Below are positions 60,140 to 61,230 of a stretch of 64,000 bases of DNA, in pieces. The stretch's first letter is position 1. Every line of letters begins with the position of its first letter. The position numbers and the translations under genes are program-made. The notes under the pieces are model-generated. The model was not told the DNA's origin. It saw nothing but the letters and a program-made list of their open reading frames with translations, and did not search any database. Where the stretch lies: the sequence record MZ779063.1; one strand, 5' to 3'. This DNA is from Staphylococcus phage vB_SauM-UFV_DC4.

Positions 60140-61230
60140 CAACTATATAAAATAGATCATATGAATACGTATGATCTTAATTAAATTATATGGTCATTAC
60201 CATATATTTGCGGATCCATTGAACCTAGGCTTTGACGAAGCATAGAGTTCATTGGATCCTATCATTATATTGTCTGTTTAATATTATATTTAATTATCTT
60301 CTTAAATTTTGATTATTATATGAATTATATTTTATTATAAAGCTATATCTTATTAAATTAAGATAATCGTATGAATACGTATGATTTAAATTTATTTACT
60401 AGCAAAATAATTTTTCCAAAATTATTTTCTTATTTGATGATACCACCCTCTGCAGGGAATCTTTTCATAAAGTTTCCCGCAGAGGAGGTTCTAGTCAAAC
60501 ATGTTTGTTTATAATAAAATAAGATTTTTAACTTAAAGTTTTTCTATAATTAATTTATAGGCATTATATGAATACGTATAATGATTATTTATTTATGTGT
60601 AGAAATATGTCCTGATGCCTGTCAGCATCTGGGCTTATTTCTCGATTATATCATATGCAGCTCGGCCCGCTTCCTTATTACTTATGAAGCCGCCTAGCTG
60701 CATTGTATATATTTGTTGGTTTAAGTTAAAAGTTTTAATTCGATTTAAAGTTATTCTATAATTAATTTATAGACATTATATGTATACGTATAATGTAATA
60801 ATTATTTATAATCATTACCATAAATAAATCTCTACGTTTCAACTCCTTCTTTATTATTAAAGAAGGAGGAACACGATAGATCTATTTATCTTTGTTTAAA
60901 TCGAAATTATTCTCTCTATTAGTCATTCTATAATTAGCTTTATAGACATTATATGAATACGTATAATGATTTTAGAATCGTATCCTATTCATTATATTTA
61001 CTCTGCTTTATTTTCGGTGTAATGATTTCTTCATTACACTCCCAGCTGGGACCATTCTTCTCTCGTTCGAAAACCACTTACTCTTTCATCAGGTCCCAGC
61101 TAAAAATAAAGCTTTAAATATAATTTTAGTATTAGAGAAGAATATAGAATGAATTAAATTCATTATAATAATCAACTTTACCGTTACCTATATGATTATA
61201 GGTAACGGTATTTATTTTTTAATTTTTTAT
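60140..61230 (+). repeat. array of five ~200-bp units (cores at 60155-60176, 60365-60386, 60562-60583, 60774-60795, 60947-60968), each a promoter-like 22-bp imperfect palindrome followed by a unit-specific GC-rich hairpin; candidate ncRNA genes of an RT system
   Basis: Cores: GATCATA-TGAATACG-TATGATC; AATCGTA-TGAATACG-TATGATT; CATTATA-TGAATACG-TATAATG (twice, one with TGTATACG). Units 3-5 share TTCTATAATTAATTTATAG upstream, giving TTTATA-N17-TATAAT. Spacings are 210, 197, 212 and 173 bp. Confidence 0.7.
61179..61228 (+). terminator. terminator-like hairpin immediately upstream of the RT gene
   Basis: TACCGTTACCTAT-ATGAT-TATAGGTAACGGTA followed by TTTATTTTTTAATTTTTT. Confidence 0.6.

Follow-up and report, generated by a model that had tools for sequence, protein, structure and literature searches.

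The locus considered here raises the question of what a reverse transcriptase (RT) gene, and the hairpin-rich DNA in front of it, do in the genome of a lytic phage. Known retrons defend bacteria against phages, and each of their RTs works with a single template RNA. In a 64,000-nucleotide (nt) stretch of Staphylococcus phage vB_SauM-UFV_DC4 (sequence record MZ779063.1; hereafter the window, equivalent by published gene coordinates to approximately positions 64001–128000 of the genome), an array of five tandem units with one shared layout (60060–61144) lies just upstream of an RT gene on the + strand (61252–62754; the longest open reading frame (ORF) starts at 61240). The encoded protein is 100% identical to hypothetical protein UFVDC4_00113 of the same phage. 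We consider it probable that this region is the noncoding RNA (ncRNA) part of a phage-borne retron in which a single RT is served by five templates. If so, both the 1.2-kb "non-coding gap" and the orphan RT, left unexplained in every Staphylococcus jumbo phage annotation, would have a function, retrons would be usable by the virus side, and what multicopy DNA hairpins do for a phage would become testable.

Layout of the array and its reverse transcriptase

Each unit follows the msr-msd layout of retron RNA as summarised in PMC7736814, with flanking inverted repeats (a1/a2) and 5' msr stem-loops followed by a long msd stem-loop abutting a2. From 5' to 3', the parts are a1, an unpaired G, the helices P1 and P2, an AT-rich linker that often holds a small hairpin, one or more GC-rich hairpins, the sequence UUUGUUUG, and a2. 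The closing a1/a2 helix is formed by unit-specific flanking inverted repeats and spans 10–24 bp in every unit of every phage examined; its inner end is conserved (UUAAA-G ... G-UUUAA), its outer part is unit specific and covarying, and the a2 of each unit abuts the a1 of the following one. P2 has 9 bp, a four-base loop, and invariant apical pairs A-U, U.G, and G-C, and UUUGUUUG is conserved, unpaired, and ends in a G immediately before a2. As in retrons, the ncRNA region adjoins the RT gene on the same strand, the array ending 108 nt before the RT start at 61252 (96 nt before 61240). The same domain plan was obtained five times over from minimum free energy folds of single units, from a fold of the whole array run with a 300-nt pairing limit, and from an RNAalifold consensus of six arrays of the S6 clade, which gave 368 pairs with compensatory changes at 15, mostly in the variable hairpins. 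The repeats were also recovered as a direct-repeat family (D1) of five copies spaced 210, 197, 212, and 173 nt apart, and a covariance model of the conserved head found exactly five matches in the window, all of them in the array and on the RT (+) strand.

The units, all on the + strand, were delimited by these folds and covariance-model matches, and every hairpin arm quoted in an original prediction made from the letters of this DNA was located by sequence match at its expected coordinates within the array. Unit 1 (60060–60300; model match 60121–60178) comprises a1 (60060–60084), G 60085, P1 (60090–60154), P2 (60155–60176), a hairpin P3 (60187–60206), an msd-like hairpin at 60212–60259 (GGATCC...GGATCC; arms GGATCCATTGAAC at 60212 and GTTCATTGGATCC at 60247), G 60276, and a2 (60277–60300). 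Unit 2 (60328–60521; match 60329–60388) has a1 at 60328–60341, G 60342, P1 at 60346–60364, P2 at 60365–60386, an AT hairpin at 60404–60428, an msd-like hairpin at 60443–60488 (arms CCCTCTGCAGGGA at 60446 and TCCCGCAGAGG at 60475), and a2 at 60508–60521. In unit 3 (60522–60735; match 60525–60585), a1 (60522–60537), G 60538, P1 (60543–60561), and P2 (60562–60583) are followed by two hairpins, 60601–60642 and 60643–60715 (quoted sequences GATGCCTGTCAGCATC at 60614, and TGCAGCTCGGCCCGC at 60656 with GCCGCCTAGCTGCA at 60689), then by UUUGUUGG and a2 (60720–60735). Unit 4 (60739–60905; match 60737–60797) consists of a1 (60739–60749), G 60750, P1 (60755–60773), P2 (60774–60795), an msd-like hairpin at 60820–60889 with its core at 60843–60868 (arms CTCCTTCTTTA at 60843 and AAAGAAGGAG at 60859), and a2 (60895–60905). 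Unit 5 (60908–61144; match 60909–60970) contains a1 (60908–60918), G 60922, P1 (60927–60946), P2 (60947–60968), and a branched msd-like domain (61005–61112) ahead of a2 (61134–61144); the hairpins of that domain lie at 61016–61039 (arms GGTGTAATGA at 61016 and TCATTACAC at 61031) and 61044–61101 (arms AGCTGGGACC at 61044 and GGTCCCAGCT at 61092), and the quoted sequence CCCAGCTGGG is found at 61041.

That each unit carries a GC-rich hairpin holds for most of the hairpins and fails for those of unit 4 and of one in unit 5 (5a), which have 33–35% GC. Pooled, the hairpin segments (291 nt) have 47% GC against 17% in the rest of the array and 24.7% in the whole window, and of the nine clusters in the 64 kb where 40-nt stretches reach 50% GC or more, three fall inside the 1.15-kb array. 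Elsewhere in the window, a GC-rich patch at 29283–29709 is ordinary coding sequence. Folding of the units, which had been suggested as a check, gave variable-region z-scores of −5.3, −6.7, −5.5, −5.2, and −7.7 for units 1 to 5 against dinucleotide shuffles, with 0 of 200 shuffles folding as well for each region. A conserved G had been expected directly 5' of each GC-rich stem; it is found instead directly after the a1 helix, at 60085, 60342, 60538, and 60750 (UUAAA-G) and, in unit 5, at 60922 (UAUUA-G), 3–4 nt past the last a1 pair of the fold. From this G to the first GC-rich stem is ~125–135 nt in units 1 and 5 and ~60–100 nt in units 2–4. The G is invariant in a 21-unit head alignment, and the position directly after a1 is the site of the priming G in real retrons (PMC7736814), making it the candidate priming or branching G of each unit.

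By its motifs, sequence, and fold, the RT is classed as a retron-type enzyme on the grounds of PADLOC, NCBIfam, and PDB matches and of its retron motifs. RVT_1 (residues 213–425) is the only Pfam domain in the protein, whose ~200 N-terminal residues have no family match. The top PADLOC matches are all retron RTs (II-A at 4.9e-38, Ec107-like, XIII, III-A, and I-C), and solved retron RTs are the best matches in both sequence and fold. In a comparison with PDB sequences, retron RTs take the first six places (8e-17 to 1e-11), ahead of a group II RT at 3.6e-4, and the retron signatures AYxxGKSIxDNAxxH and xTG are visible in the alignment. The NAxxH motif reads N270-A271-D-Y-H274, with H274 invariant in alignments of 18 and of 12 sequences. 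The (V/I)TG motif reads I421-T422-G423, with G423 invariant and T422 nearly so, and aligns with the VTG of 22et_A. The virion proteome of DC4, which covers 15 proteins and is shallow, does not include the RT.

The array looks like a single transcription unit of its own, because hairpins resembling terminators lie at 59978–60008 and 61179–61220 and the motif TATAATATTAATGAAGA stands at its head. The first of these hairpins, terminator-like with a 12-bp stem and a T-run on the − strand, closes the upstream gene and would form the 5' limit of the array transcription unit; the second is a canonical intrinsic terminator on the + strand (14-bp stem plus T-run), conserved in all relatives, between the array and the RT gene. 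TATAATATTAATGAAGA (60047–60063, + strand), just before a1 of unit 1, has 23 matches in the window at up to three mismatches against 7.1 expected (0 of 100 shuffles), is conserved at the array heads of phage SA1 and two metagenomic contigs (L011 and L014), and is a putative promoter. It recurs on the + strand elsewhere, e.g., at 8124, 19466, 43372, and 54656, and may represent a phage promoter class distinct from the published TATATTAT early motif.

We propose the following scheme for the putative retron. The array would be transcribed on the + strand, probably from the promoter-like site at ~60050 to the terminator at 61179–61220, and each unit would fold independently, since it is closed by an a1/a2 helix of its own. 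The msr part recognised by the phage RT would consist of P1 and of P2 with its invariant apical A-U, U.G, and G-C pairs. The enzyme would then prime from the 2'-OH of the unpaired G after a1 and copy the 3' part of the unit, from UUUGUUUG next to a2 through the GC-rich hairpin. The predicted product is a set of five different multicopy single-stranded DNA (ssDNA) hairpins (msDNAs) made by one enzyme.

Covariation, strand, and conservation of the units

Among 21 distinct units, P1 and P2 are 98.8% paired, and 11 of the 16 pairs, including all seven of P1, show compensatory changes; 0 of 500 shuffles did as well, and pairing fell to 60% or less once partner columns were slid by 1–3. P2 alone, compared over 17 distinct units from Staphylococcus-type phages and two metagenomic contigs, is 98.7% paired with compensatory changes at six of nine pairs, and 0 of 500 shuffles reached the observed values for percentage paired, double-change cells, or covariation score. 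The a1/a2 helices differ between units and between clades with complementarity kept, as in unit 4, which reads UUCGAUUUAAA-G / G-UUUAAAUCGAA in DC4 versus GAAAUGAAUUAAA-G / G-UUUAAUUCAUUU in SA1. A matrix of cognate and noncognate a1/a2 energies was confounded, since each a2 abuts the a1 of the next unit. Cross-clade RNAalifold on MAFFT alignments misaligned the variable hairpins, which were compared by per-sequence folding instead. In positional orthologues the architecture of these hairpins is kept and whole helices are replaced. The outer stem of unit 5, for example, reads GCUUUAUUUU/AAAAUAAAGC in S6-clade phages, CCUCUUUU/AAAAGAGG in those of the Machias clade, and GGAGAAU/AUUCUCC in SA1, and the helices of its two inner hairpins are replaced between clades as well. 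The hairpins are conserved as structures in nine relatives, and a lack of conservation in related genomes, which would have spoken against the original prediction, was therefore not observed.

The two parts of the unit also differ in the strand that folds better. In the msr-like part the + strand does so in 38 of 38 units (mean, 4.7 kcal/mol; G.U pairs, 53 vs 12), and the U.G pair of P2 is invariant on that strand; in the variable part the advantage lies with the complement (cDNA sense), in 30 of 38 units and by a mean of 2.4 kcal/mol, the units in both comparisons being related and RNA parameters serving for both strands. Such an asymmetry would be expected if the 5' part works as RNA while the 3' part has to fold as complementary DNA too, and we regard it as supporting evidence rather than proof. 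Small ORFs that start at the ATG in each P2 (MNTY...) were considered and set aside as noncoding, because their lengths range from 3 to 54 amino acids (aa) among orthologues. The suggestion that the hairpins belong to structured RNA or ssDNA of msd type, rather than to coding or purely regulatory DNA, agrees with the full retron layout and the adjoining retron-type RT.

DNA and protein searches of a phage collection found the same locus in nine other Staphylococcus jumbo phages. The loci of PALS_2, S6, Madawaska, MarsHill, and LY01 are 88–96% identical to that of DC4 at the nucleotide level, and the RTs of AH12, PB50, Machias, and SA1 are 53–59% identical to the DC4 enzyme. All nine carry four to five units upstream of the RT, and the covariance model returned four to five matches in each, as well as three in contig L014, which had been left out of model building; unit 4 is absent from the Machias clade. 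The RT module is syntenic and vertically inherited in this lytic Staphylococcus phage lineage. The relatives of DC4 belong to the AR9-like phages, which encode their own RNA polymerases, and phage S6 DNA has been reported to contain deoxyuridine in place of thymidine. The accessible text of Korn et al. 2021 (bioRxiv 10.1101/2020.12.14.422802) terms the MarsHill RT retron-like and hypothesises that a 1,200-bp noncoding region upstream of MarsHill gp206 holds the ncRNA of the retroelement.

Arrays accompany more distant RTs as well. In metagenomic contigs L011, L014, and L012, RT homologues 38–64% identical to that of DC4 are preceded by noncoding gaps of 0.96–1.6 kb that hold three, three, and eight units of the same architecture, respectively; in L012, at 38% RT identity, six of the eight units have an unpaired G after a1. 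Listeria phage LPJP1 (L010; RT 36% identical) has only 171 nt upstream of the RT, and its array of four to five units (7926–9040) lies downstream of the RT and of the 661-aa ORF that follows it. A further probable case is a 241-kb viral contig (L015; IMGVR_UViG_3300035698_013060) that encodes a 562-aa retron-type RT (33% identical) and carries six CCCRGGTCTCCYGGG hairpins (CCCRGG-UCU-CCYGGG) spaced ~149 nt apart at 928–1871, 1.3–2.3 kb upstream of the RT, each followed by long GC-rich hairpins. This contig is of ordinary GC content, so the array design is not tied to AT-rich genomes. The RTs of all compared loci are retron-type with an N-terminal extension, and no Rfam family was found in any related RT-array locus examined.

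The conserved hairpin changes with the RT lineage, reading AUG-NAUA-CGU in the Staphylococcus phages, AUG-WWAG-CGU in L011, AAG-UUU-CUU in L012, and GUGAUG-UAAU-CGUCAC in LPJP1, a pattern that would be expected of an RT recognition element. When IMG/VR was scanned for exact occurrences of TATGAATACGTATRAT, the 58 matches were all single and evidently due to chance, and no array was found. Within 185,579 bacterial and archaeal species (one genome each; pattern-seeded search), the RT clade has no close relative and one distant generic retron RT was found.

Competing explanations and known systems

Several observations weigh against a retron. The RT scores below the curated cut-offs of every named retron family (its best NCBIfam match, the St85 retron RT family, reaches 135.6 bits against a cut-off of 235) and about equally well against several PADLOC types, and by these scores it fits no defined retron type. 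The N-terminal domain of ~200 aa is absent from the matched retron RT structures, and priming chemistry could differ. Unusually for a retron, an intrinsic terminator (61179–61220) stands between the array and the RT gene, and a sigma-70-like sequence, TTTATA-17-TATAAT, overlaps P1/P2 in units 3–5, making internal promoters possible. The ORF directly after the RT gene has no match in Pfam, PHROG, or PADLOC and thus no recognisable effector domain, and the strand comparison carries the limits given with it. Finally, we infer reverse transcription, the branch point, the ends of the product, and RT dependence of the ssDNA by analogy with known retrons.

These points bear most on an alternative that we consider rather unlikely, in which the structured RNA of each unit binds the RT or acts alone (as a scaffold, decoy, or regulator) and is never copied into stable msDNA. 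The covariation proves a folded single strand only, and the G.U pattern of P1/P2 proves RNA for the 5' part only; the position of the RT outside the defined types, its extra N-terminal domain, and the terminator ahead of its gene would all be at home in such a system. Precedents exist in DRT-type ncRNA-RT complexes and in type VI retrons, which form their DNA only upon a trigger and are described with little constitutive msDNA in the available text of a recent preprint (bioRxiv 10.1101/2025.10.22.683967). However, the geometry of a1/a2, G, and a template next to a2 is kept even in L012 with its distant RT. Such geometry is required for retron priming and has no obvious use in a pure RNA decoy. 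In addition, the variable part is without the + strand folding preference of the msr part.

It is considerably less probable that the units are five independent small-RNA genes with no functional link to the RT, each headed by a TTTATA-17-TATAAT promoter and equipped with hairpins as stabilisers or terminators. The sigma-70-like match over P1/P2 in units 3–5 is indeed good (10/12), and hairpin 60617–60634 has a weak T-rich tail. Promoter hexamers, however, need no compensatory changes between arms, yet P1/P2 covary at 11 of 16 pairs, which argues that the hairpin, rather than the promoter match, is under selection. Moreover, units of the Machias clade and of L014 have GTGAAAT or TAAGAC at the "−10" position, the supposed promoter is enclosed within the folded unit by the a1/a2 helices, and the array accompanies the RT in distant phages with a conserved hairpin that changes with RT lineage. 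The possibility that the hairpins are simple transcription terminators, raised with the original prediction, did not withstand inspection: 60617–60634 is the sole T-tailed hairpin within the units, one weak match among about seven, and the real terminators, at 59978–60008 and 61179–61220, lie outside them.

It appears highly improbable that the repeats function as double-stranded DNA, be it as iterons of a replication origin, as a site of packaging or recombination, as targets of homing endonucleases, or as insertions bounded by terminal inverted repeats that resemble miniature inverted-repeat transposable elements. The region is AT rich and repetitive, with many inverted repeats, including those that bound the units, and Korn et al. 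describe many homing endonucleases in these phages (bioRxiv 10.1101/2020.12.14.422802, accessible text). Against this stand the invariant U.G wobble and other G.U pairs on one strand only, as well as the helix-by-helix compensatory replacement, which points to a folded single strand. The inverted repeats, furthermore, differ between units, the units occupy orthologous positions, and the 64-kb window holds no further copies elsewhere.

We give equally little credence to an RT of another templated system (a diversity-generating retroelement (DGR), a group II intron, or a DRT2-like builder of genes from concatenated cDNA), since, although DRT2, DRT9, and DGRs likewise pair a dedicated RT with a neighbouring structured template RNA, their RTs are more distant in sequence and fold and their ncRNAs are single-copy and of other architectures; DGRs need a template repeat/variable repeat (TR/VR) pair and Avd, absent at the DC4 locus, the window holds no second copy of a unit, and the accessible text of Korn et al. 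(bioRxiv 10.1101/2020.12.14.422802) reports no Avd, TR, VR, or IMH, while a group II intron is countered by a group_II_RT_mat score of 54.6 against a cut-off of 300, by RVT_1 being the sole Pfam domain of the RT, and by the lack of any Rfam match in the window or related loci. Rfam 15 gave no gathering-level matches, an E-value scan of the array returned chance hairpin matches (E ≥ 0.8), and ARAGORN found no tRNA genes.

The phage-borne retron, which we favour, thus resembles bacterial retrons (Retron-Eco1/Ec86, Eco7/Ec78, Eco2/Ec67, and Sen2/St85) in the NAxxH and xTG motifs of an RT that is closest to theirs in sequence and fold, in an ncRNA that adjoins the RT on the same strand, and in the arrangement of a1/a2, unpaired G, short 5' stem-loops, and a long 3' stem-loop abutting a2. 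It differs in having five ncRNAs per RT (three to eight in relatives) instead of one, in an RT of no defined type with its N-terminal domain, in the terminator between ncRNAs and RT gene, and in a neighbouring ORF without a known effector domain. Unlike bacterial retrons, it is a syntenic, core-like module of virulent jumbo phages rather than part of a bacterial defence island or prophage, and its msDNA is a prediction.

Engineered retron arrays ("multitrons," Gonzalez-Delgado et al., PMC10370050) likewise place tandem ncRNA/msd units under a single RT and yield several RT-DNAs per cell, but they are synthetic Retron-Eco1 constructs for multiplex editing, whereas the DC4 array is natural and evolutionarily conserved. 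The available text of PMC10370050 mentions no natural counterpart. Private a1/a2 arms such as those of the DC4 units would prevent mis-pairing of arrayed units. In the sister phage MarsHill, the DC4 locus corresponds to the region upstream of gp206, for which the accessible text of Korn et al. 2021 (bioRxiv 10.1101/2020.12.14.422802) contains no description of units or their number, structure, a1/a2 repeats, G, conservation, or homologues outside Staphylococcus phages. A full-text literature search, whose scope left out most subscription journals, turned up no report on a natural retron with several ncRNAs or on the RNAs of this phage RT clade. The DC4 element therefore looks like a natural multi-template retron, a design described in the literature found only as an engineered tool. 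If this is correct, nature has already solved the arraying of retron templates by means of private a1/a2 arms and a compact recognition module of ~45 nt, and the array, as a natural Gram-positive system, would be relevant to multiplexed retron editing.

With regard to function, we speculate that the module serves host takeover or counter-defence, its abundant DNA hairpins acting as decoys for, or ligands of, host proteins that target DNA, rather than abortive infection, because it is core-like in a lytic lineage, where a phage would gain nothing from suicide of the infected cell. This would be the reverse of the known role of retrons. A broader and more tentative proposal is that virulent jumbo phages of Firmicutes (S6-like phages, LPJP1, and uncultured relatives) run a natural "multitron," in which a distinct, phage-restricted RT clade with an N-terminal domain and 3–8 ncRNAs might fill infected cells with a fixed cocktail of msDNA hairpins that carry conserved GATC, AGCT, and GGWCC palindromes and act as decoys or ligands for DNA-targeting immunity or repair proteins of the host.

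Neighbouring genes and minor features of the units

The candidate partner or effector is a 274-aa ORF (62756–63580, + strand) that starts one base after the RT stop at 62754 and directly follows the RT in all relatives of this type. A profile search of 5.8 billion proteins recovered clade members only, an exhaustive HMMER search of 1.84 billion representatives led to five clusters, and the AF2 model was unusable (pLDDT 36.7). In L012 and LPJP1 the ORF is replaced by ORFs of 587 aa (6526–8289) and 661 aa, respectively, which are 37% identical to each other and unrelated to the 274-aa ORF. Two unrelated types of ORF thus follow the RT, and the RT-plus-array core would therefore have two alternative partner proteins.

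Several short duplex palindromes persist in the stems although the sequence around them changes (the window and loci L006, L009, L010, L012, and L014), and they may be protein recognition sites on a DNA or RNA stem. GATC is present in both arms of the unit 1 hairpin (60213 and 60255 in the window) throughout the Staphylococcus clades, as well as in L014 and one L012 unit; AGCT is found in unit 3 (60659 and 60696) and in one LPJP1 unit; and GGWCC occurs in unit 5 (61044–61053 / 61092–61101) and, by eye, in L012 and LPJP1 units. GATC and AGCT stems are each present in five of eight arrays, equal to two of four independent lineages. A decoy for restriction enzymes (Sau3AI, GATC; Sau96I, GGNCC) was considered and rejected, as the phage genome avoids neither site (GATC, 157 vs 137–193 expected; GGNCC, 23 vs ~14 expected). 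A search for complementarity between the hairpins and other phage DNA, proposed with an antisense or target-mimic function in mind, came back empty in the 64-kb window, where short-word blastn gave AT-rich chance matches only.

Individual units have peculiarities of their own. The P1 loop of unit 1 carries an insertion of ~40 nt (60100–60140; AATAAAAACAACCTCCAATTGATTTTATTGTGCTACAAC), itself a small hairpin, in DC4, PALS_2, S6, Madawaska, and LY01; it is absent in MarsHill and lowers the covariance-model score to 36.5 bits from the 53.5 bits of MarsHill. P3 of unit 1 (GGTCATTACC) is 88% complementary over 17 nt (60193–60209) to an arm of the upstream terminator (GGTAATGAC, 59972–59988), which may be chance, and a P3-like hairpin appears again in unit 4 at 60796–60825 (repeat family D2). 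The second hairpin of unit 5 has a pyrimidine-rich 38-nt loop (61054–61091; AUUCUUCUCUCGUUCGAAAACCACUUACUCUUUCAUCA), the sequence of which is conserved between the S6 clade and AH12 and in part also in SA1, with covariation in the closing stem. The first 10 nt of this loop (61054–61063) are complementary to AGAGAAGAAU in a2 of the same unit (61134–61143), in the S6 clade only. Upstream of the array, the third ORF is an endolysin gene (58138–59463) with Amidase_2 and two PG_binding_1 repeats; the RT module thus adjoins late/lysis genes, and contigs L011 and L014 share this synteny, as does every Staphylococcus-type relative.

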